NCBI RefSeq assembly: GCF_003790525.1
Contig: NZ_CP033635.1
Reading direction: 5' to 3' (one strand)
From: Escherichia coli
GTDB lineage: Bacteria > Pseudomonadota > Gammaproteobacteria > Enterobacterales > Enterobacteriaceae
Length of the DNA: 64,000 bases
A program made the position numbers and the translations under genes. Positions 8,679 to 32,635 of this stretch are shown one piece after another; position 1 is the first letter of the stretch, and every line of letters begins with the position of its first letter. The notes beneath the pieces are model-generated. The model was not told the origin of the DNA. It saw only the letters and a program-made list of their open reading frames with translations, and did not search any database.

Positions 8679-9426
8679 AATATTATCGGTTATACTAATT
8701 AAGTTAAAAAATAAACTATAAATACCAGAGCCTGGTATTATTGCTTGTTTTTTATAAGCAAATAATGAGCTGGGGTTTAAATTATGCCACTAAATGGATA
8801 TTCATCAATACCCCGCCAGAGAGATAGTTGCCCAGCGGGCATAGATCATTATTAGTCAACCAATGAGCATAAATAAGCACAAGGAGGTGTGTATTGCGAA
8901 TAGTAATTCAATGACATGCTGGTGGTTTTTTTGTGGTGAAAATATTTGTACCTTTTTGTTTACGGATGAAAAATAAACAGTCATATTATTTTGGTTAATT
9001 GTTGTGTTAGTTTTAACACTCGGTGATGTTTTTTGTTATAGTGCATTAATTTTTAAATAAAAAAATTCATACATTCATGGATGTAATATATACAAGATAC
9101 AATGTTAATTTTAGATAAAATATTAATTGCATTGGATACTTTTTAAATATGCCGATGTTGAGCTTAATTTTATGAGGGAATACTATTTCGGGTTGTAGGA
9201 CTTTTTTATAATCATCTTATAGGGCTCTTTATATTTACAGGAGGGTTTTGAACGATAGTTACATAACGAAGGTTGTTTATATGCGTTTACAAGCGATTAA
9301 TTAGATTAGGTGAATTTTAATAAATTAATCTATAATCATACAGCAACTATATGAATTATATTATTGACTAAATGTAATTCTTTCATCATAGTTGACATGG
9401 TTATTTTATATAAATAGAGGTGATTT

Positions 9427-10056
9427 ATGCAAAACAGAAAATTTTTAACGCATCATGAAATTAATTTACTACTTCAATCTGTAAGACAAAAGAGTTGCTC
9501 TTCACGCGATGTTTGCATGATTTTATTGGCTTATTTTCATGGTCTGCGTGTTAGTGAGCTCTTATCTCTGCAGTTGTCGGATTTAGAACTAACTACAGAA
9601 AAAATATATATTCAACGGATAAAAAATGGATTCAGTACAGTCCATCCACTTCAAAAGGAAGAGGTGATTGCAATAACAAACTGGCTGAATGAAAGGAATT
9701 CATTAAATGTTAAACATTTCAATGATAACCCGTGGTTATTTGTTTCCCGAACAGGAAAACCATTATCGAGACAACGATTTTATAACATAGTTTCTGCTGC
9801 GGGTAAAAATGCAGGTTTAAATATTAAAGTTCATCCACATATGTTACGCCATGCATGTGGTTATTCACTAGCAGATAATGGTGTGGATACCCGTCTTATT
9901 CAGGACTATCTCGGGCATCGTAATATCAGGCATACGGTAATTTATACTGCTTCTAATTCAATGAGATTTGAAAAAATGTGGGGGAGAGGTGACGCAAAAA
10001 AGCAACATTTTGACCCAAAATGTAAACCCAATCTTTGTTTAGAAATTCTCGTATAG
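9427..10056 (+). CDS. FimB/FimE-family tyrosine site-specific recombinase (IpuA/IpbA-like)
   Basis: 209 aa with HMLRHACGY...LGHRNIRHTVIYTA motifs. Divergent from the first recombinase and co-directional with the regulator and autotransporter genes. Confidence 0.85.
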   Translation: MQNRKFLTHHEINLLLQSVRQKSCSSRDVCMILLAYFHGLRVSELLSLQLSDLELTTEKIYIQRIKNGFSTVHPLQKEEVIAITNWLNERNSLNVKHFNDNPWLFVSRTGKPLSRQRFYNIVSAAGKNAGLNIKVHPHMLRHACGYSLADNGVDTRLIQDYLGHRNIRHTVIYTASNSMRFEKMWGRGDAKKQHFDPKCKPNLCLEILV

Positions 10057-10373
10057 AAAAACATTTTTTTCTATAAAAAACATTAAATTTACTGATTTAG
10101 ATCAATGTGTGACGTCAATCTACACATAAAGAGGTAGGTTTGTCTTCTTTTTAATCTTTGGCGTATAAAGCCAAAATGTAAATAATAATCAAAATTATAT
10201 TCTGAATTAAAATAAATACGCAGGTTTTTTACCTGCGTTTTGTGCTATTTATAGTTAATTAAATTGATGTTGTCAAAATGGGTCATTTTGTAAACCTGTG
10301 CCTCAAGGTTTGTCTCCCCCCGGTGTGCAAAGCAAAAGGAAATTGGGAAAGGGGATAACAGGAAATTGATTGC
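10057..10373. promoter_or_regulatory. Candidate location of the invertible promoter element (ipuS-like switch) between recombinase and regulator genes
   Basis: 317-bp AT-rich gap directly downstream of a Fim-type recombinase and upstream of the regulator-autotransporter operon, the same layout as fimE-fimS-fimA. It contains palindrome TATAGAAAAA-catt-TTTTTCTATA at the recombinase stop, hairpin ACGCAGGT-tttt-ACCTGCGT (10218-10238), and direct repeats TGTAAACC (10021, 10291) and AGGTTTGTCT (10135, 10305). I could not locate the exact 7-bp inverted repeats by eye. Confidence 0.4.
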
Positions 10374-20819: not shown

Positions 20820-22091
20820 CTATTCTTTCCAGTCAATCCCATCCAGTAAGCACCCTGCCTCATATTGCCCAACAACCCAGTCAAGATTGCAGGACTCATA
20901 GAAAGCGAGGCGATTATACTGTGGCTCGTTTTTTACCAGACCACGAACGGAGCCGCGTTGCCAGTACAGGCACAGATTGGCAAGAGGTGTGATCAGCACA
21001 GCATTGTCCGGGAAAAATGGAACGGTCACAGCCGGAAGATTCCCCAGCACGGGCTTTTTAATGATTTCCTCGTTAAGCAAAATTTCCTGATTCATCTGCG
21101 ATGGATCAAGACGGTTTATCAAAGGCCATTGTTTACGGACCAGAGTATTGTGACTGCATACGGCCACAATGCCTTCCTGCCACTGTTCATCAATCATGGA
21201 TTGCCAGGCATCCAGAACAAGTGCATCTATTGTATGGTGTGTACCGCGTGTATTGCTTGTCGGCGATGAAACAGAAAGACCGCTGATAACCCTTCCCGCT
21301 GCTTCGTTTCGAAACTTCTGCAACCATCCGACGCCGCAATCGTCACGGCCCGGATATGTTTCAGGATCAGATTGATCGGCATAGTGTGTGCCGTTAAAAC
21401 CAATCTGAATTAAATCCAGCCATTTCCGGCGTTCAAAAGCGGCACGGGCGCTTCCTTCAAGACCATTTGCGGACGCGTGAGCATCGACATTGTCGTAGCT
21501 CAACGCAAAATCAAAATTAACCTGCTCGCAGCGGTAGCCTCTTGAAACCAGTGAATGCGCCTGTAGTGGCGAACGGCGCTCGTGAGGTGGCGATGTACGT
21601 GCCAACGGCCGGGAAGCGTCTACCAGCACAACCTGACCTGATATATCCGTAACAGGCACGGGGGTTATTTCAGCAAGGAAATTTGCCTGCCATCCACTGG
21701 CAAGCGTTGCACTCTGGCGGGGAACGGGTTCAACTTCTGACGAATAGCGCGCAGTATCACCGGAAAAGTGCAAATCCTTCGGATGCTTTCCGGTTATCGA
21801 CTCGATAGCGCAATTGAAAACCATCTGAGACTGTTGATTTCGTTGTGATACAACATAATCAGCAGTGCAATTATAACACTCAATGCCGTCGTTATTACCC
21901 CCACCGCTTGCAGTATGCAGGGTGTGAAGCTCAAGCTCACGCTCCAGTTTTTGATATTCATTGTCCAGCGCGCGACGCGTCTCATCGCTTATGCTTGCTG
22001 TGTTTGCTTTCAGGCGATTCCGGGACATTAACTCCCTGAGTCGGCTCACTATATCAGCGCCGTGCAAATGTGAAATATTCAGACCGCCCAT
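20820..22091 (-). CDS. Hypothetical protein B (424 aa), no recognisable domain, second gene of a translationally coupled pair
   Basis: The listed ORF runs to 22232 and overlaps the upstream gene. The likely start is the ATG at 22091, overlapping the upstream stop as TAATG. E. coli-like codon usage throughout. Confidence 0.6.
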   Translation of the reverse strand: MGGLNISHLHGADIVSRLRELMSRNRLKANTASISDETRRALDNEYQKLERELELHTLHTASGGGNNDGIECYNCTADYVVSQRNQQSQMVFNCAIESITGKHPKDLHFSGDTARYSSEVEPVPRQSATLASGWQANFLAEITPVPVTDISGQVVLVDASRPLARTSPPHERRSPLQAHSLVSRGYRCEQVNFDFALSYDNVDAHASANGLEGSARAAFERRKWLDLIQIGFNGTHYADQSDPETYPGRDDCGVGWLQKFRNEAAGRVISGLSVSSPTSNTRGTHHTIDALVLDAWQSMIDEQWQEGIVAVCSHNTLVRKQWPLINRLDPSQMNQEILLNEEIIKKPVLGNLPAVTVPFFPDNAVLITPLANLCLYWQRGSVRGLVKNEPQYNRLAFYESCNLDWVVGQYEAGCLLDGIDWKE

Positions 22092-22801
22092 TACTGCCAC
22101 CCCCGGCAGAGTTCTCTGCCCTCCGCAAGGTCGCGCATTTTTTCTGGATTCTGTCGCGCCGCGCTCCATTGTACAGGTGAAGGGGCGTTCCTGATTGCGT
22201 GGCTTACCGAATCCGGCAGTTTCTCCGGGCAATAACGAAGCGGATTGGAGGCATCGCTCTCAATATCGTTAATCCGGCCGCGAATCAGCCCGACACTTTC
22301 AACAATATCTGCCATTTTCAGTGTTTCACATATTTTCTTTTCTGCGTTATACAGCGGCTGGCCAAGCAGCTCACATAAACCACGAATCAATAGCAGAGCA
22401 GGGGTCAGCTCGTTAATCAGTCCGGGAAGTGCTTTTGCAAATATCTCTGCCCGCAACTTATTATCAATGCTTTGGTAAGCACAGCCAGCCTCTGCCGCGT
22501 TATAACGACACTCCAGTAACCTGATGCGCGCCTCATCATGCAATACCCGCAGACGCTCAAGATTTTCTCGCGCCACACCCGCCTGAATGCATAATTTTGC
22601 GGAGGCTTCCGTTTTTGCGCCCAGCGCAGACAGGATTGAGTTCTGCCAGTCACGTTCGAGAGACTCCAGCTCCCCTTTCGTCTGTTCGATAGTCGCTTCC
22701 AGATTGGTGATTAATGATTCCTGTTCGCTGAGTTTTGCCATGGCCGTATCAAACTGTGCTTTACATGCCTGATGCCTGGCGCTTGCCTGAGTTATATCCA
22801 T
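22091..22801 (-). CDS. Hypothetical alpha-helical/coiled-coil protein A (236 aa); positional equivalent of P4 psu
   Basis: Predicted coiled coil. Sits directly after the Ogr/Delta-like gene on the same strand, as psu does in P4. I cannot verify homology to Psu. Confidence 0.55.
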   Translation of the reverse strand: MDITQASARHQACKAQFDTAMAKLSEQESLITNLEATIEQTKGELESLERDWQNSILSALGAKTEASAKLCIQAGVARENLERLRVLHDEARIRLLECRYNAAEAGCAYQSIDNKLRAEIFAKALPGLINELTPALLLIRGLCELLGQPLYNAEKKICETLKMADIVESVGLIRGRINDIESDASNPLRYCPEKLPDSVSHAIRNAPSPVQWSAARQNPEKMRDLAEGRELCRGWQ

Positions 22802-24046: not shown

Positions 24047-24360
24047 GGGGGGTGCGCAAAGCGGTTACAACGGTTACAACACTCAAAAACACCACTTAAC
24101 AGCATGATTTTAATGGATATTGTTTGTAACCGCTTTGCGGTTACACTGCGGTTACAACGGTTACAGGTTTCAAAAAGCACTTTATTATCAATCAATTAAA
24201 AACTTAACCTGTAACCGCCTGTAACCTAACAAAACGGTTACATGTAACCGCGTTGTAACCGCTTTTATAACTCATCGGACCAGTTATAATATATTGATAT
24301 ATAATACAAAAATAAGTAATTTTAAATTTGTAACCGTTGTAACCGCTTTGCGCACCCCCC
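24047..24360. repeat. 314-bp dyad-symmetric iteron region; candidate replication origin (ori/crr-like) or recombinase site
   Basis: 33-bp perfect inverted repeat: GGGGGGTGCGCAAAGCGGTTACAACGGTTACAA (24047-24079) and its reverse complement TTGTAACCGTTGTAACCGCTTTGCGCACCCCCC (24328-24360). At least 12 GGTTACA/GTAACCG iterons in both orientations. AT-rich centre. C9 homopolymer at 24355-24363. Confidence 0.7.
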
Positions 24361-24611
24361 CCCAAACTTTAGCGCGACCCTTTAAAATGTTAATTAAACT
24401 CACTTACTCTGTATCTCTCTCGTTAACTCTCTGTTATTGAAATGTATCTCTCCACTGTTTCACTCTTTCTGATAATCAGGGGAAGCAAAAAATTGATGGC
24501 GGCACTACTGCAATATGGCCACCATTGCATTGCTGTTACCGTTGGTTCTGGCCAACAAAAAAGGTCAGCGGGAAACTGACCTCTTTTGCTGTGAATGCGG
24601 CGTTCTGCGGG

Positions 24612-25616
24612 TTACTCTGCTGGCTCTTTTTCTTCGGTGATCACTATGTTGGCTACCGGGTTAAATCTCATGGCATCTGCCAGATAATCCGGTGCAAAAT
24701 GTGCGTATGCCATAGTCTGCTGAATTGTCGCATGCCCAAGGATTTTTTGTAGCGCAAGAATGTTGCCACCGTTCATCACAAAGTGACTGGCGAATGTATG
24801 CCGCAATACATGCGCAGCCTGCCCCCTCGGTAAATCGGGTTTTATTTTTTTTAATGCCCGGCAAAACTCTCTGTACTTCACATCAAACAGTCGCCCGGTT
24901 TCTTTTGTTTTTACGGCATCGCATATTTCCTGCGACACAGGCACCGTTCTTTTTCTACCGTTTTTGGTTTCCAGAAACGTTATTCTGTTATGAACTATTT
25001 GCTCTCCATGCAATCTGCTGGCCTCACTCCAGCGGGCTCCGGTACAAAGACACAAGAGCGCAACCCTTCGTTGATCTCCATTCAGCCCGTCAAGCAACAA
25101 TGTGACCTCGTTTTTTGATAAAAAGGCCATTTCCCGCTGCTTTACATAAAGAACAGGAATACCACGAACCGGATGCTCTGCATCCCACAAACCGATCTTT
25201 TTCAGGGCTGTAAACATCCCCGATAATCTGTTCATGTATCTGTTTGCTGAGGACGGCTTTAATCCTTCCGCAATTTTCTGCGATCGCCATGCAATGATTT
25301 TTAATTTGTTGAGTTCTGCCGCAAACATGTCAGCTCCAAGCTCATTAATAATTTTGCCAAGTTGCTGTTTATCCGTGTTTGCCTTTCGCCTGTGCTGACC
25401 GTGATAGACCCACCACAATTCCAGTAAATCGCTAAGCGTTCTCCGGTCGCGATAGCCCTGTATAAACTCGCGCTTTTCGGCGTTCGCTATGATGTACCGT
25501 TCAGTTGCTGTAGCTATCGATTTTTTGTCAAATATTCTTCTGATGCGCTTCCCTTTACGTCCGCATGGCCTGATATCGAGCAGCCACCGCCCATCATGCA
25601 TCTTTCTGATCGGCAT
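24612..25616 (-). CDS. P2-Int-like tyrosine recombinase (second integrase/recombinase of the element)
   Basis: MPIRKMHDGRWLLDIRPCGRKGKRIRRIFDKKS resembles the P2 Int N-terminus, with C-terminal HVLRHTFASHF...LGHATIQQTMAYAHF catalytic motifs. Start chosen 3 bp after the primase stop. The listed ORF extends into the primase gene. Confidence 0.8.
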   Translation of the reverse strand: MPIRKMHDGRWLLDIRPCGRKGKRIRRIFDKKSIATATERYIIANAEKREFIQGYRDRRTLSDLLELWWVYHGQHRRKANTDKQQLGKIINELGADMFAAELNKLKIIAWRSQKIAEGLKPSSANRYMNRLSGMFTALKKIGLWDAEHPVRGIPVLYVKQREMAFLSKNEVTLLLDGLNGDQRRVALLCLCTGARWSEASRLHGEQIVHNRITFLETKNGRKRTVPVSQEICDAVKTKETGRLFDVKYREFCRALKKIKPDLPRGQAAHVLRHTFASHFVMNGGNILALQKILGHATIQQTMAYAHFAPDYLADAMRFNPVANIVITEEKEPAE

Positions 25617-25618
25617 GT

Positions 25619-28288
25619 TTAACTCCCCTCCTTGTAACTGAATATCCGGCATTTCAGTACTTCCGGCTCTCTGGCCTCGGCGACCCCTCTTCCGGCGTTT
25701 GCCTGTCTGGAGACCTCACTACGAATGGTTTTGCGGCCTGTCAAAGGTCGGGAACGTCCGGCTGCGAGCAACTCAATCATTTCGCGGTCAGTTCGGATCT
25801 CCACGCGGTGAATAGCGGCAGCCTGTGCCAGTTGCGGAATACTGATAGCAATCCCCTCGCGGCATCCCTTGCCGTAGTGGTTTACACCGTATTTTGTTAT
25901 GCCGTCCAGATAGTCGAACGCCTCCCAGAACGCTATTACTTCCGGCAAGTCATCCGTTACCGCTTTAACTTGTTCCGCTGCCATTCGTTCCAGTTCCTGG
26001 CATGTGGCATTAAGCCATTCATCCGGGATATCAATAACGCATTTCAGCGCCCTGACCAGCGCAATAAGTTGCGCGTGATTTTTGGCAATACGGGGATGGA
26101 GAATATTTTCGCAACCGCAAAGGCGGGTCGTTTCAGGCTCTGAGAGCGCCAGAAACATTTCCATAATTGCCCGTTCACGGCTGACTGCCCGATGAATAAA
26201 CCCTGACACCTTCTCAACGGGGTAGAGTTCCAGTCGTCTCGCCGCCAGCCGGGTATCAGACGAGTGGCGCTTTTTATCGGTATATATGCGAATCAGTCGC
26301 TCAATAATTGCAAGTGAGGCGTTTACCCTGGCATTCTGTGCAATCACGATAGCGCCCTTAAAATCCGGGTCATAGGTGTTGTTATTGTTGGTCTTAACGC
26401 CACGAACGCCGATACCGCCGCCGTTATAGAGGCTTTTCAGGTTATCGAAGTCAAACGCACCTCTTTTTTGCGCATTGCCTCCCCTGTCTGCTTCAATCAG
26501 AACAACAGGTAATCCGGCGACCTGTCCAAAGGTGCGCTTCCAGCCCGCCTCTGATCCTTTGGTTGGATCAACGCCTTCATAGTTGTCACGACCGCACAAC
26601 CGCCAGCAAAAATCAATCAATGTTGATTTACCCGTTCCGGGCTCCCCGGTGACTTCAAGGAAGGGGAAGGATTCTTCTTTATCCCGGATTTGTTCGCTGA
26701 ACAGGGAGCCCAACCAGAAAGCCAGGGTAATAATTCCTTTTTCACCAAAAGCCAGCCAGAGATCTTCCACCCAGGACTCTGTAAACTCATCCGGTTTTTT
26801 GTAGTTAATCTGTAATGTGGGTTTTTCGCTTAATGGTTTTGCGTTTATGCCATCAATTTCAAAATAATCTTCGTCATTGATTTCATAAGTTTTTCCCTTG
26901 TAAACAGCAATATCATTAAACAGCCATGCCCCAATCGCCTTGTTGTATCCGATAAAATCCTGACCAATAACCTCTTTTATTGCGGGAAGGTCATTTTTTA
27001 TTAATGCGTCAAGGTGCGCAGTTGTTCCGGTATAAATGCCGCCTTTTGCCACATGCAACAGGCGTTTTTTAAATTCAGATGCGGATGTCAATTGTCCTGA
27101 TGTAAAGGTGTTTTTCACCGTAGCACCATCCGGGAACGTAACACGGAAGTAATACCATGCTTCATCCGTGTCATTATTTCTAATGTAATAAAGCGGCGCT
27201 GGGTTACAGTTTGCGATTTCTTTTACTGCGCCAGATTCCTTAAGTGCAATTTTGCGCGCTTCATCCTCATCAACACTTCTCTCATTCTTGGCACGCTCTA
27301 CAGCTTTCATATAGCGCTCAATGTCCAGTTTGAACCAGAAAACACGGTTATCAAAAGTAAAATGAAATTCCTTCCGCTCACGAAAGGAAAATATTATTAG
27401 CGCCTTATCTCTCGGAGATTTCGCCAGCAATAAATCACCGTAATGACGGTATCTTTTCACATCATGGCCACGCAGCTTTCCGGCGATGTGTAAATCATTC
27501 CAGTCGCGTTTATTGTTGTTTTTACCTGGCAACGCCGCTGCCGTTCTCCAGCCGTCTTCGGCGCTGCGTTCTGCATGTTTTTTCGCGTAACGCTCACCCG
27601 CACGCCCGTTATCCAGCGCCCACACAATAACCGGACGGGGATTATCCCCGCACAGCTTCGCCAGCTCTTCCAGCGCCTTATCAGGGTAGTTCACGGCAGA
27701 CATGACAGAAACGGCCGCAATGCCATTCTGGTTAAGGCTGATGGCATCAAAGATGCCCTCACAAATCCAGATTTCTTTGGCCTTGCTTAAATCTGCTCCC
27801 GGATAAGCCCACCACAACCCCTTGTAGCTGCCGGAAAAATTCGCCTTGCGCGCGAAGCGTCCCGGTCGGTCTATGATGCGCTCCCACCACACGCCGTCAG
27901 CCAGCGTAAAACGCACAGTAGCGGCCTGTTCGCCGTTTTCCTTGTCCTGGTATCGCTCCTGAGTAAATGCGCCCTTCAGTGGCCCCACAGCAATATTGCG
28001 CGCCTCCTGAAGATAAGCTGCCACCGCTGCATATGGCTCGTCTTTCGTGCTGATATAACGATCTGACCATGATGAAAACACATCCGGGTAAAGTTCTTTG
28101 GTCAGCAGGTCTGTACCGCATTTATTTTCGCGCCCACAGTGTACGATGTACGGCCTTTCAAGGCTGGTAAACAACTCTTTCTTTCCACATTGCGGACAAA
28201 CACCATACCGGAGGTAGTTATTTTCTTCTTTGAAGTTGTAATCACGGATAAGACGGTTAATAATCTCTTTTCTGATGTCAGATTTCAT
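25619..28288 (-). CDS. P4-alpha-like primase-helicase (zinc-ribbon primase + D5_N + SF3 helicase Walker A GEPGTGKS)
   Basis: About 890 aa. N-terminal CPQCG...HCGRENKCG zinc ribbon and a central P-loop. Size and architecture match satellite-phage replication proteins. Confidence 0.8.
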   Translation of the reverse strand: MKSDIRKEIINRLIRDYNFKEENNYLRYGVCPQCGKKELFTSLERPYIVHCGRENKCGTDLLTKELYPDVFSSWSDRYISTKDEPYAAVAAYLQEARNIAVGPLKGAFTQERYQDKENGEQAATVRFTLADGVWWERIIDRPGRFARKANFSGSYKGLWWAYPGADLSKAKEIWICEGIFDAISLNQNGIAAVSVMSAVNYPDKALEELAKLCGDNPRPVIVWALDNGRAGERYAKKHAERSAEDGWRTAAALPGKNNNKRDWNDLHIAGKLRGHDVKRYRHYGDLLLAKSPRDKALIIFSFRERKEFHFTFDNRVFWFKLDIERYMKAVERAKNERSVDEDEARKIALKESGAVKEIANCNPAPLYYIRNNDTDEAWYYFRVTFPDGATVKNTFTSGQLTSASEFKKRLLHVAKGGIYTGTTAHLDALIKNDLPAIKEVIGQDFIGYNKAIGAWLFNDIAVYKGKTYEINDEDYFEIDGINAKPLSEKPTLQINYKKPDEFTESWVEDLWLAFGEKGIITLAFWLGSLFSEQIRDKEESFPFLEVTGEPGTGKSTLIDFCWRLCGRDNYEGVDPTKGSEAGWKRTFGQVAGLPVVLIEADRGGNAQKRGAFDFDNLKSLYNGGGIGVRGVKTNNNNTYDPDFKGAIVIAQNARVNASLAIIERLIRIYTDKKRHSSDTRLAARRLELYPVEKVSGFIHRAVSRERAIMEMFLALSEPETTRLCGCENILHPRIAKNHAQLIALVRALKCVIDIPDEWLNATCQELERMAAEQVKAVTDDLPEVIAFWEAFDYLDGITKYGVNHYGKGCREGIAISIPQLAQAAAIHRVEIRTDREMIELLAAGRSRPLTGRKTIRSEVSRQANAGRGVAEAREPEVLKCRIFSYKEGS

Positions 28289-29281: not shown

Positions 29282-29809
29282 TTAAACATGGCACGCCTCC
29301 CGGACACGGATACGGGCAACAAAGACCAGACGGGATGCCGGAAGCAGGGCGCGCGCTTCGCGCTCACTGGCAGCGGTAACGGTATGAAGGCGGATATTTT
29401 TACCGTGGCACTGCATAAAGCGCCAGATAAAATCAGGGCGTGTTGATATAGCCATTTTGGCGGCTCCTTGATTAAGTTTACGGAGTCTCGCCAGCACGCT
29501 GTCAAACATGGTGGCGGGACGTAACAGGGTTGACAGACTGGCAATCAAGGAACCAGCGAGCGCAAAGGCTCCCCCATTACGCCCCGCCATAATACGGGGT
29601 AGGGTGGAATTACGGGCACAAAAAAACCGCATTACGGAAATATAGCGGCTACCCGCTTGATTGTTCAGGCTGTCAAACCCGGCACCCGCTTTATGAGGTG
29701 CGGGCAAACGATACGCCATGACAAAAAAGCGAGTCAAGCAATATTGCAAATTATTTTTGCGCAATTGCGCTGAGTGATTGATTTTTAAGAGTAAAAAAGT
29801 CATAATCAT
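29282..29809 (-). CDS. Hypothetical protein, satellite early region (start uncertain; overlaps a frame-shifted ORF at 29107-29544)
   Basis: Two overlapping ORFs are listed. Possible frameshift, or only one is real. Confidence 0.3.
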   Translation of the reverse strand: MIMTFLLLKINHSAQLRKNNLQYCLTRFFVMAYRLPAPHKAGAGFDSLNNQAGSRYISVMRFFCARNSTLPRIMAGRNGGAFALAGSLIASLSTLLRPATMFDSVLARLRKLNQGAAKMAISTRPDFIWRFMQCHGKNIRLHTVTAASEREARALLPASRLVFVARIRVREACHV

Positions 29810-29899: not shown

Positions 29900-30084
29900 T
29901 GCTCTGCTGCCAATACCCGGCCTCCTTCCCTCACATGTAGTCATGTGCTCATTCCAGTCAGGTGGATAATGCTGTATTACCGGACATCCGGTTATGATGT
30001 TTAAAGCGTTTGTTTGTTTATGCCACGTGGAGAATATACCCCCACCGCCATTACTTGTATTTATCATAACAGTTCACCCAATTC

Positions 30085-30101
30085 GGTTAATGTAACCGGA
30101 A
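30085..30101. repeat. Perfect palindrome CCGGTTA-atg-TAACCGG sharing the GGTTA/TAACCG iteron core of the ori-like region
   Basis: Second cis site 5.9 kb from the main iteron cluster, on the other side of the primase gene. This parallels the P4 ori/crr arrangement. Confidence 0.4.
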
Positions 30102-30362: not shown

Positions 30363-30584
30363 TTAAGCCTGAAAACGTTGTTGTTTTCTTTCTTCTATCC
30401 AGTCGATAATTTCCTCTTCAACCCATGCAACCGCGCGAGGGCCTATTTTTATTGGTTTGGGGAATATATCAGATTTTATATCTTCGTAAATTCGAGCTCT
30501 TGATCTCCCTGTGATTTCAATGACTCTGGGGAGTCTTATTAATTTTTGAATCCGCCTTTCGCTGGTCTGTGAGTATGCTGACAT
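30363..30584 (-). CDS. alpA: AlpA-family phage transcriptional regulator (MerR-like HTH/excisionase-like)
   Basis: 73 aa. RLPRVIEITGRSRARIYEDIKSDIFPKPIKIGPRAVAWVEEEI is the AlpA/prophage CP4-57 regulator signature. Confidence 0.8.
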   Translation of the reverse strand: MSAYSQTSERRIQKLIRLPRVIEITGRSRARIYEDIKSDIFPKPIKIGPRAVAWVEEEIIDWIEERKQQRFQA

Positions 30585-31112: not shown

Positions 31113-31147
31113 TAAAAAAATCGGCGTGTCCACATATTGTCCACGCC
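31113..31147 (-). terminator. Rho-independent terminator of the P4-type int gene
   Basis: Hairpin GGCGTG...CACGCC followed on the minus strand by a T8 run. Confidence 0.55.
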
Positions 31148-31194: not shown

Positions 31195-32457
31195 TCAGTC
31201 TGTTTCGTTAGTCCATTTAAAATCATAGGGGGAAATATATGCCGCCTTGCAGGTGTCGAGATAATCAGCCCACCATTGCAACATTCGGCGGCGTTCCTGC
31301 ATATGTTCAGCTCTGTGAACGTATGCAGCCCGGACACTGCCTCTTTCCCTGTGACTCATCTGAAGCTCAACGGCTTCTCTTGTCCACCTGCCTGACTCTG
31401 TCAGCGCCGAACAGGCCATGGTCCTGAATCCGTGACCACAAATATCTTTTTTTGTGTCGTATCCCATGTGGCGTAATGCCTTGTTAATGGTGTTTTCGCT
31501 CATTGGTTTTATCTGGTAATGGTCGCTGGGGAAAATAAACACTTCATCACCGGATATATTTCTTATATCGTCAAGAAGCTGCATGGCCTGAGTGGGTAAA
31601 GGGATGGCGTGAGGGGTTCCCATTTTCGTTCCACGATATGAATATTTTACGCCTTCTATTTTTTCGCGTTCTGCTGGTATTACCCACATTGATTTATCAA
31701 AGTCAATTTCATTCCAACGAGCAAAACGCAATTCACTTGAGCGAATAAAAATTAATAAATTTAATTTTAGTGCAAATTGCGTTAATAACCGTCCATTCAT
31801 CTTATGGTGGTAATCATTTATTTTGCCAAGTAATTCAGGTAATCGCTCAAGGGGAAGAGCGGGGCGATGTTTGGTTTTATTAGTTTCGATTGCACCGTTC
31901 AGTTCCTGCGCTGGATTGTATTTAATCATTCCATTCTGTACAGCGTAGCGCATAATGGCGTTCATTCGCTGCTTGTTACGTGATGCTGTCTCAAGCACTC
32001 CTTTGTCTTCCATTTTGCGTAAAGGAATCAGTAGATCCATGGTTGTGATCTCGTTAATTGGCCTTTTACCAAGAATGGGGAAGATGTGGTTTTCCAGGTC
32101 TTTTAAGACTTTTTGCGCGTGCAATTCGCTCCAGCCCTTTTTCCGGCTGTGCCATTCTCTGGCAACGTCTTCAAAAAGCACTATTTGAGGTTTTGGTGTG
32201 TGCAGTGGGTCAATGCCTTTAGCCAGGCTCGCCAGATATTCATCACGAGCGTTCCTTGCCTGTGCAAGTGTTACGGCAGGATAAATGCCTAAAGCTCGGG
32301 TCGTTTCTTTACCGTTGATAACCTTGCGAAAGCGCCAGTATTTTGAGCCGTTGGGGTGAACATAGAGATACAGGCCTTTCCCGTCACGAAGTTTTTTAAT
32401 TTTATTGTTGTCCTTATCTGGTTTGGCGTTACGTACAGCTATATCAGTCAGTTTCAT
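31195..32457 (-). CDS. P4-type tyrosine integrase (DUF4102 arm-binding + catalytic domain)
   Basis: Start chosen at MKLTDIAVRNAKP. Catalytic motifs GHGFRTMA and MSHRERGSVRAAYVHR. Directly adjacent to the 3' end of argW. Confidence 0.9.
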   Translation of the reverse strand: MKLTDIAVRNAKPDKDNNKIKKLRDGKGLYLYVHPNGSKYWRFRKVINGKETTRALGIYPAVTLAQARNARDEYLASLAKGIDPLHTPKPQIVLFEDVAREWHSRKKGWSELHAQKVLKDLENHIFPILGKRPINEITTMDLLIPLRKMEDKGVLETASRNKQRMNAIMRYAVQNGMIKYNPAQELNGAIETNKTKHRPALPLERLPELLGKINDYHHKMNGRLLTQFALKLNLLIFIRSSELRFARWNEIDFDKSMWVIPAEREKIEGVKYSYRGTKMGTPHAIPLPTQAMQLLDDIRNISGDEVFIFPSDHYQIKPMSENTINKALRHMGYDTKKDICGHGFRTMACSALTESGRWTREAVELQMSHRERGSVRAAYVHRAEHMQERRRMLQWWADYLDTCKAAYISPYDFKWTNETD

Positions 32458-32635
32458 TATGTTGATCCTCCAGACGGGTACAAATAAAAATCGAACCAAG
32501 CATACCCGCTTTTATACCCATTTTAATATGGGCTTCAGGCAAATTTAACGAGAGAAAATGAGACAATGGGAGATGTTTAACTCATTGAAAGTAAATGGAT
32601 AATGGTTTTTTCTGAGAGGTTGCAAGAAGTTGCGA

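Follow-up and report, generated by a model that had tools for sequence, protein, structure and literature searches.

The window analysed here, i.e., the whole stretch of 64,000 bp of Escherichia coli DNA, contains an island whose closest record is that of strain GF60 (99% identical), where the island is annotated at tRNA-Arg beside yfdC. Judged by its gene content, the element, which is integrated in the E. coli chromosome, is a phage satellite of P4/PICI-like type. The following genes and signals surround the region of interest:

31195-32499, minus strand: P4-type integrase gene
30363-30584, minus strand: alpA
29507-29701, minus strand: C4 and isrK RNAs of the P4 immunity type (Rfam), with an Icd-like gene in the island
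25619-28288, minus strand: primase-helicase gene (889 aa) with zinc finger, toprim, Walker-A NTPase and a fast-evolving C-terminal domain (Pfam toprim; PHROG 1139, E = 2e-297)
24612-25616, minus strand: tyrosine integrase gene of the P2/HP1 family (Pfam Int_N and Phage_integrase; PDB 5c6k, E = 5e-80)
24553-24591, minus strand: terminator-like hairpin (GGTCAG..CTGACC, then TTTTTTG), which closes the primase-recombinase transcript

As the preliminary description had stated, the P2-type integrase gene adjoins both the primase gene and an array of short repeats (24047-24363): it starts 2 nt past the primase stop and is separated from the array by 248 nt. Concerning the hairpin, the terminator scan calls it on the plus strand only; the minus-strand reading is our own and is based on the inverted repeat and the sequence. 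With Rfam, the stretch 29507-29714 (minus strand) matches the C4 antisense RNA (74.6 bits) and isrK (50.6 bits), the c4 a1/b1 target element staying below the gathering score. These matches indicate RNA immunity of the P4 type, although the primase of the satellite is not alpha-like. The Rfam scan found no known RNA family in the array region, its only hits being C4, isrK, and one tRNA elsewhere in the island.

Past the array, the island continues on the minus strand with a 90-aa ORF, an ogr/delta gene, a 236-aa ORF, a P2-family capsid gene, and a MazEF pair. The satellite thus has a P2-family major capsid protein of its own (Pfam PF05125, E = 2e-73; within 20820-22801, minus strand), whose 236-aa neighbour in the same stretch has no family match. 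In GF60, an IS21-family element (istA/istB) is situated between the ogr/delta gene and the 90-aa ORF (17005-19312 of its locus, L001), which the window does not contain.

The array itself is composed as follows, beginning at the side away from the primase gene:

24047-24079: far-side outer arm with G6, the box GCGCAAAG, and direct heptamers at 24063 and 24072
24080-24124: far-side AT-rich spacer, up to 70% AT in 40-nt composition windows
24125-24165: inner unit cluster 1, with a reverse unit at 24125 and forward units at 24139, 24150 and 24159
24166-24209: AT-rich spacer in the centre (78% AT), in which TATCAATCAATTA at 24186-24198 (plus strand) matches the IHF consensus
24210-24260: inner unit cluster 2, in which the units at 24210, 24220 and 24254 are reverse and GGTTACATGTAACC at 24236-24249 forms a head-to-head pair
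24265-24327: primase-side AT-rich spacer, 93% AT at 24290-24329, with the block TTGATATATA and an IHF-consensus match at 24287-24299 (minus strand)
24328-24360: primase-side outer arm with units at 24329 and 24338, the box CTTTGCGC, and the beginning of the C run
24355-24363: C9 run, which reads G9 on the primase strand
24366-24393, minus strand: promoter-like TTAACA-16-TAAAGT, found in a consensus scan directly before the G run of the primase strand

The perfect inverted repeat of 33 nt that had been described is present, GGGGGGTGCGCAAAGCGGTTACAACGGTTACAA at 24047-24079 being the exact reverse complement of 24328-24360; an inverted-repeat search extends the arms to 36 nt at 97% complementarity (one mismatch), with 248 nt between them. 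The two homopolymer runs were likewise confirmed (G6 at 24047-24052 and C9 at 24355-24363). Thirteen of the 18 GGTTACA/TGTAACC heptamers of the window fall within 24063-24344, the other five being found elsewhere in the 64 kb; shuffled sequences contain 6.9 +/- 2.6 heptamers per 64-kb window, and none of 100 shuffles reached 18. Between the arms, where more than ten units had been reported, there are nine exact ones and one with a single mismatch. On the plus strand, the layout is >> < >>> << > << << (> denoting a forward and < a reverse unit), the head-to-head pair consisting of forward unit 24236 and reverse unit 24243. Folded as a single strand, the array reaches -86 kcal/mol compared to -35 +/- 3.6 kcal/mol in shuffles (z = -14.4). 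An AT-rich centre, as described before, does exist (78% AT), but the highest AT content (93%) is found off-centre, beside the primase-side arm. The spacer concerned is a candidate melting region, and its TTGAT..ATATA block is conserved across genera. As to the IHF-consensus match in the central spacer, it recurs in E. coli lineages and in the loci L011 and L018, but not in all loci, and as a functional element it is only suggestive. DnaA boxes were found in none of the arrays.

The C tract had also been considered a hotspot of slipped-strand mispairing. Its length does vary among the nine E. coli relatives (C run 7-11, opposite G run 5-6), but there is no sign of switching, and the tract seems to be a fixed structural part with ordinary homopolymer drift, as nearly all other genera have a run of G5 to G9 at the primase-side border. 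All genera (L006-L046) have, on the primase strand, a -10-like hexamer (nAnAAT) that precedes the G run by 4-6 nt, and in E. coli a TTAACA is situated 16 nt further upstream. Such a promoter-like element (24366-24393, minus strand) could direct transcription into the array; the promoter scan of the region yielded three promoter-like sites compared to 2.1 +/- 1.6 in shuffles, i.e., not above background.

To study the occurrence of the array outside the window, primase homologues were aligned, and the alignment was used to scan a single genome of each species; a profile built from the array was then applied to the resulting 80 loci. A homologous array of about 330 bp was found in 26 loci (nine of E. 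coli, L006-L018, L024-L026, and L046), distributed over about ten enterobacterial genera (Escherichia, Kluyvera, Erwinia, Izhakiella, Pectobacterium, Samsonia, Providencia, Proteus, Xenorhabdus, Arsenophonus, Klebsiella, and Enterobacter). In all 26, it is situated downstream of the primase gene and in the same polarity, with profile scores of about 190-280 on the strand defined by the primase versus 20-80 on the other one. Among 5426 complete E. coli genomes, the array with its flanks is present in 64, in every case on the chromosome, with a single copy in each satellite; the plasmid and phage collections yielded no record of it. In six further enterobacterial loci with a primase of about 50% identity (L019-L023 and L027), neither a homologue of the array nor a cluster of 6- or 7-mers was found within 6 kb, so that their origin must be of another form or be located elsewhere. 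These loci weigh against the array as an origin.

The frame common to the genera opens with a G run, which is followed by a CGGAAA-type box and a pair of direct units. Next come an AT-rich spacer containing the TTGAT..ATATA block and inner units, among them the head-to-head pair; another AT-rich spacer separates these from further inner units, and after a third spacer the frame closes with two inverted units and the box once more. The composition of the outer arm (G/C run, CGGAAA-type box, two units 9 nt apart) recurs in all genera, and other genera retain the head-to-head pair, built from their own core. The core of the unit differs among lineages in the following way:

GGTTACA: Escherichia, Providencia, Proteus
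rGTTACA: L007-L010 (Kluyvera, Erwinia, Izhakiella, and an unplaced metagenome bin)
CGTTACA: Providencia rustigianii, Xenorhabdus
CCTTACA: Arsenophonus
yGTTACA: Pectobacterium
yATTACA: Klebsiella, Enterobacter

In an alignment of five E. coli array versions, identity between the window and TOE17 or STEC388 amounts to 93% in the columns of the heptamers, compared to 62-64% in the other array columns, which shows selection on the units. In STEC313, 12 of the 13 units exhibit the same change from T to C, resulting in GGTCACA. The higher identity of the heptamers together with this concerted change is what is expected of sites for one sequence-specific protein with a shifted specificity, and the array is a real and functional structure.

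Concerning the gap between the primase gene and the array, it contains a recombinase gene only in the E. coli group and in L006-L010. In the other loci it is either empty, the array beginning 135-220 bp after the stop in most of them, or occupied by an unrelated ORF (L015, L017, L018). The nine E. coli loci possess, in the same slot, three types of recombinase (A, B, and C), which are 51-59% identical to each other and all of which adjoin GGTTACA arrays, type B adjoining both GGTTACA and GGTCACA arrays. The array thus follows the primase and not the recombinase, because it is kept whatever the gap contains and because three recombinase types share one heptamer.

The array is quite probably the vegetative replication origin of the satellite, of the iteron type known from PICIs and P4. 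That it might be a satellite origin had already been proposed, and this proposal is the best-supported reading, both by the comparison of loci and by the likeness to the experimentally studied origin of EcCICFT073. In that island, a pri-rep-ori segment maintains a plasmid only if the origin is present, and deletion of the origin abolished pri-dependent plasmid maintenance (Fillol-Salom et al. 2018, PMC6092414). Located in the CFT073 sequence, the origin of EcCICFT073 lies directly 3' of pri-rep, exhibits the layout >> < >>> << > <<, and has a terminal inverted repeat of 18 nt. The two structures have in common their position downstream of the primase/initiator gene in an island of the type int-alpA-...-primase, the outer inverted pairs, whose direct units are spaced 9 nt apart, inner units of mixed orientation, and AT-rich spacers; they span about 230-320 bp, and their layouts are nearly alike, the array described here having one extra << pair. 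Despite this general similarity, there are several differences: The unit is of TCTACC type in EcCICFT073 and GGTTACA here; the initiator of EcCICFT073 comprises 584 aa and has nothing but the Walker-A region in common with the toprim protein of 889 aa; an integrase as a cargo gene between initiator gene and origin is found in the E. coli group described here, unlike in EcCICFT073; and the array described here is framed by a G run and CGGAAA-type boxes.

In the SaPIs of Staphylococcus aureus, two sets of iterons flank an AT-rich region 3' of rep. The array shares with PICI and SaPI origins the position 3' of the initiator gene in the integrated satellite (26 of 26 loci) as well as opposed sets of iterons that flank AT-rich DNA (13 heptamers, outer inverted pairs, spacers of 70-93% AT). 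With SaPI origins there is, however, no sequence relation and only a weak structural match, and primase and helicase form one polypeptide here. In the literature consulted, no paper was found that links GGTTACA to an iteron of this kind. The element is, most likely, of an ordinary kind but a version not described before, with an origin that serves a distinct primase-helicase family. A function can hence be proposed for a conserved non-coding block of a satellite family that about 1% of complete E. coli genomes carry and that extends to about ten further genera of enterobacteria, and the PICI origin layout would also be used by a different, larger family of primase-helicases in P4-like elements.

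With P4, the element shares the P4-type immunity RNA (C4/isrK), the Icd-like gene, the ogr/delta gene, and a primase-helicase. The primase had been called alpha-like, which is true in a remote sense only: BLASTP aligns just the Walker-A region (27 aa, E = 2e-4) and the toprim region (E = 0.004) with P4 alpha, and neither a sequence match in the PDB nor a fold match revealed the origin-binding domain of alpha in the primase. In P4, crr directly follows the terminator of alpha and contains TGTTCACC octamers in both orientations, the orientation of the units being likewise mixed here. Yet P4 needs two regions, ori and crr, which are 4.5 kb apart, whereas a single cluster is present here, and the suggested comparison with the type I iterons of P4 does not hold at the level of the unit, GGTTACA being different from the P4 octamer.

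The pairing of ori and crr had been proposed on account of a second site near alpA, described as the perfect palindrome CCGGTTAatgTAACCGG at 30085-30101. The sequence actually present is TCGGTTAATGTAACCGG at 30083-30099, in which only the arms CGGTTA/TAACCG of 6 nt each (30084-30098) are perfectly paired. Its heptamer at 30091 is the only other one in the non-coding DNA of the island. The site follows the int/alpA module and not the array: It is present in GF60 and TOE17, which have the tRNA-Arg int/alpA module in common, and absent in STEC388, OkiPb01677, and STEC313; where the GGTTACA array is kept but the integration module is a different one, the site is missing. A GGTCA..TGACC counterpart was not found in STEC313, and in the other genera heptamers outside the array do not occur beyond chance. 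Since the site is tied to int/alpA and does not recur elsewhere, there is no second cis region of the crr kind. A few bases before this palindrome, in the alpA-proximal intergenic region, lies AGTTCACC (30071-30078), a single 7/8 match to the type I iteron of P4.

Concerning the protein that might bind the heptamers, the primase is the most economical candidate. Its C-terminal domain evolves fast: Within E. coli, the last 130 aa or so are 66-90% identical compared to 91-98% for the first 700 aa, and between genera the respective values are 31-50% (C-terminal 130 aa) and 54-68% (N-terminal 700 aa). The AlphaFold (AF2) model of the C-terminal 215 aa, with a pLDDT of 89, ends in an order of helices and strands compatible with a winged helix. 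In fold searches, none of the known origin-binding domains, that of P4 alpha among them, was matched significantly; the best long matches of the C-terminal domain were weak ones to the C-terminal parts of the SaPI Rep and Cch helicases. In Xenorhabdus innexi (L018), an ORF of 278 aa is situated between primase gene and array (8733-9569, minus strand of the locus), and it ends in the motif set of the primase C-terminus, EFW..FD.L..NH..IA..F...KCW.F. This ORF suggests that the C-terminal domain is a separable module, and it may represent a stand-alone copy of the putative origin-reading part. At the level of single residues, covariation between the heptamer core and the primase C-terminus did not tie the T-to-C switch to particular residues: The C-terminus of the STEC313 primase (GGTCACA) differs from those of GGTTACA elements no more than these differ among each other, and the CGTTACA locus L016 and the GGTTACA locus L014 are 95% identical in this domain. 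GGTTACA and GGTCACA, with primases about 91% identical, form a natural specificity pair for the reading of the iterons.

The mechanism that we infer, in which the binder, the site of melting, and any role of IHF, of the G run, or of the promoter-like element are all putative, would be the following: After induction, the primase-helicase of the satellite would bind the 13 heptamers, probably with the C-terminal domain that evolves so fast. Assembly of the protein to either side of the AT-rich spacers would be brought about by the two outer inverted pairs together with the two inner clusters. Melting of the stretch of 93% AT beside the primase-side arm would follow, upon which synthesis would be initiated by the helicase and primase activities.

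Among the alternatives to an origin, the array could be an operator or enhancer of the downstream late-type genes, bound by a regulator specific to the satellite, with or without an additional role as an origin. Its location, with the terminator of the replication operon on one side and co-directional genes (90-aa ORF, ogr/delta, a scaffold-like gene, capsid) on the other, and the conserved -10-like hexamer just before the G run would fit this explanation. We nevertheless regard it as unlikely, as 13 sites in a dyad layout with AT-rich spacers correspond to the layout of tested PICI origins, the promoter-like matches do not exceed the background, and the downstream genes vary (the 90-aa ORF is absent in STEC388, STEC313, and OkiPb01677), the primase being the only constant neighbour.

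A role as recombination site of the adjacent P2-type integrase, be it as an attP with arm sites or as a site for the resolution of multimers, had been offered as an alternative and would be suggested by the gene order: The integrase gene lies directly upstream of the array, and in P2-like phages the attP is likewise found just downstream of int. Moreover, the integrase (type A, 24612-25616) is 81% identical to the integrases of the P2-like Xuanwuvirus phages and 51% to that of P2, has an N-terminal segment of the arm-binding type and intact catalytic motifs, and the array contains IHF-consensus matches. Contradictory to this explanation, arrays exist with nothing or with unrelated ORFs between them and the primase gene, no P2-type recombinase was found within 6 kb in L011, L012, L013, L025, L015, and L017, and in Providencia-type elements a homologous integrase gene is situated about 5 kb from an intact array. 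With three recombinase types at one heptamer, the recombinase furthermore does not predict the repeat. The homologous attP is different from the array, such that the heptamers are not ordinary int arm sites of a P2-like attP: The arm sites of phage Chuche, a Xuanwuvirus, are TGTCCAC pairs (TGTCCAC-N4-TGWCCAC) in direct orientation around a unique core, 277 bp apart, none of which is found in the array, and the 6-kb phage region examined contains no GGTTACA. Homology between phage and satellite DNA ends inside int, at window position 24673. In view of these findings, a recombination site is very improbable.

What the second integrase acts on is a separate matter. No recognisable site of its own was found in the satellite, and no TGTCCAC pairs are tied to it. 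There is some, rather slight, chance that it is an orphan enzyme of helper type, used in trans on a P2-like helper prophage, which it might excise where the helper expresses its own int poorly, or in whose attachment site it might land the satellite. If so, the origin would mark a cargo slot that is expressed together with the replication operon; for the array as origin, its place is in any case the boundary of a variable cargo slot.

The only TGTCCAC pair of the window, GTGTCCACATATTGTCCAC (31127-31144, plus strand), is situated just 3' of the P4-type integrase gene. It accompanies the tRNA-Arg integrase module whatever the type of the second recombinase, and it is absent in elements at the hpt/gcd site that carry type A. 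Two copies of GTGTCTAC exist near the other end of the island (20117-20158, minus strand). As the pair at 31127-31144 is confined to elements with the tRNA-Arg integrase module, the two sets of sites are probably the arm sites of this integrase, although they resemble those of the P2 family.

Even less credit can be given to the array as an invertible or phase-variable segment, which was a further suggestion and in which a recombinase would flip the DNA between the 33-nt arms or the C run would slip. Perfect inverted repeats do lie beside a tyrosine recombinase gene, and the C run ranges from 7 to 11 among relatives. However, all 61 E. coli genomes found by megablast are collinear over at least 80% of a 601-nt query that spans the array, of which an inversion would leave at most 59% per strand; the polarity towards the primase is the same in 26 of 26 loci; and the array segment splits neither a gene nor a significant promoter.

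The poorest candidate, with next to no probability, is a miniature transposable element or a packaging (cos/pac) site, for which one could cite the terminal inverted repeats and chance-level matches of 10-11 nt within the arms (CGCAAAGCGG) to the P4 cos junction, but the array has a fixed place with the same flanks in each satellite and does not occur elsewhere in the 5426 genomes or the plasmid and phage collections, the 19-mer of P2/P4 cos is absent from the window within 3 mismatches, and the lineage-specific changes of the unit point to a protein encoded by the element and not to a helper terminase.

Two minor observations concern the surroundings and the copy number of the array. The stretch of about 190 nt between the terminator of the recombinase gene and the array (24367-24560) is conserved to 84-99% in the same 64 E. 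coli genomes, and just its last 50 nt or so are recognisable in other genera. Providencia rustigianii (L016) possesses two full tandem arrays and a partial third one (profile matches at 8751-8908, 8982-9334, and 9376-9696), and an extra half array exists in X. innexi (L018) at 10187-10336.
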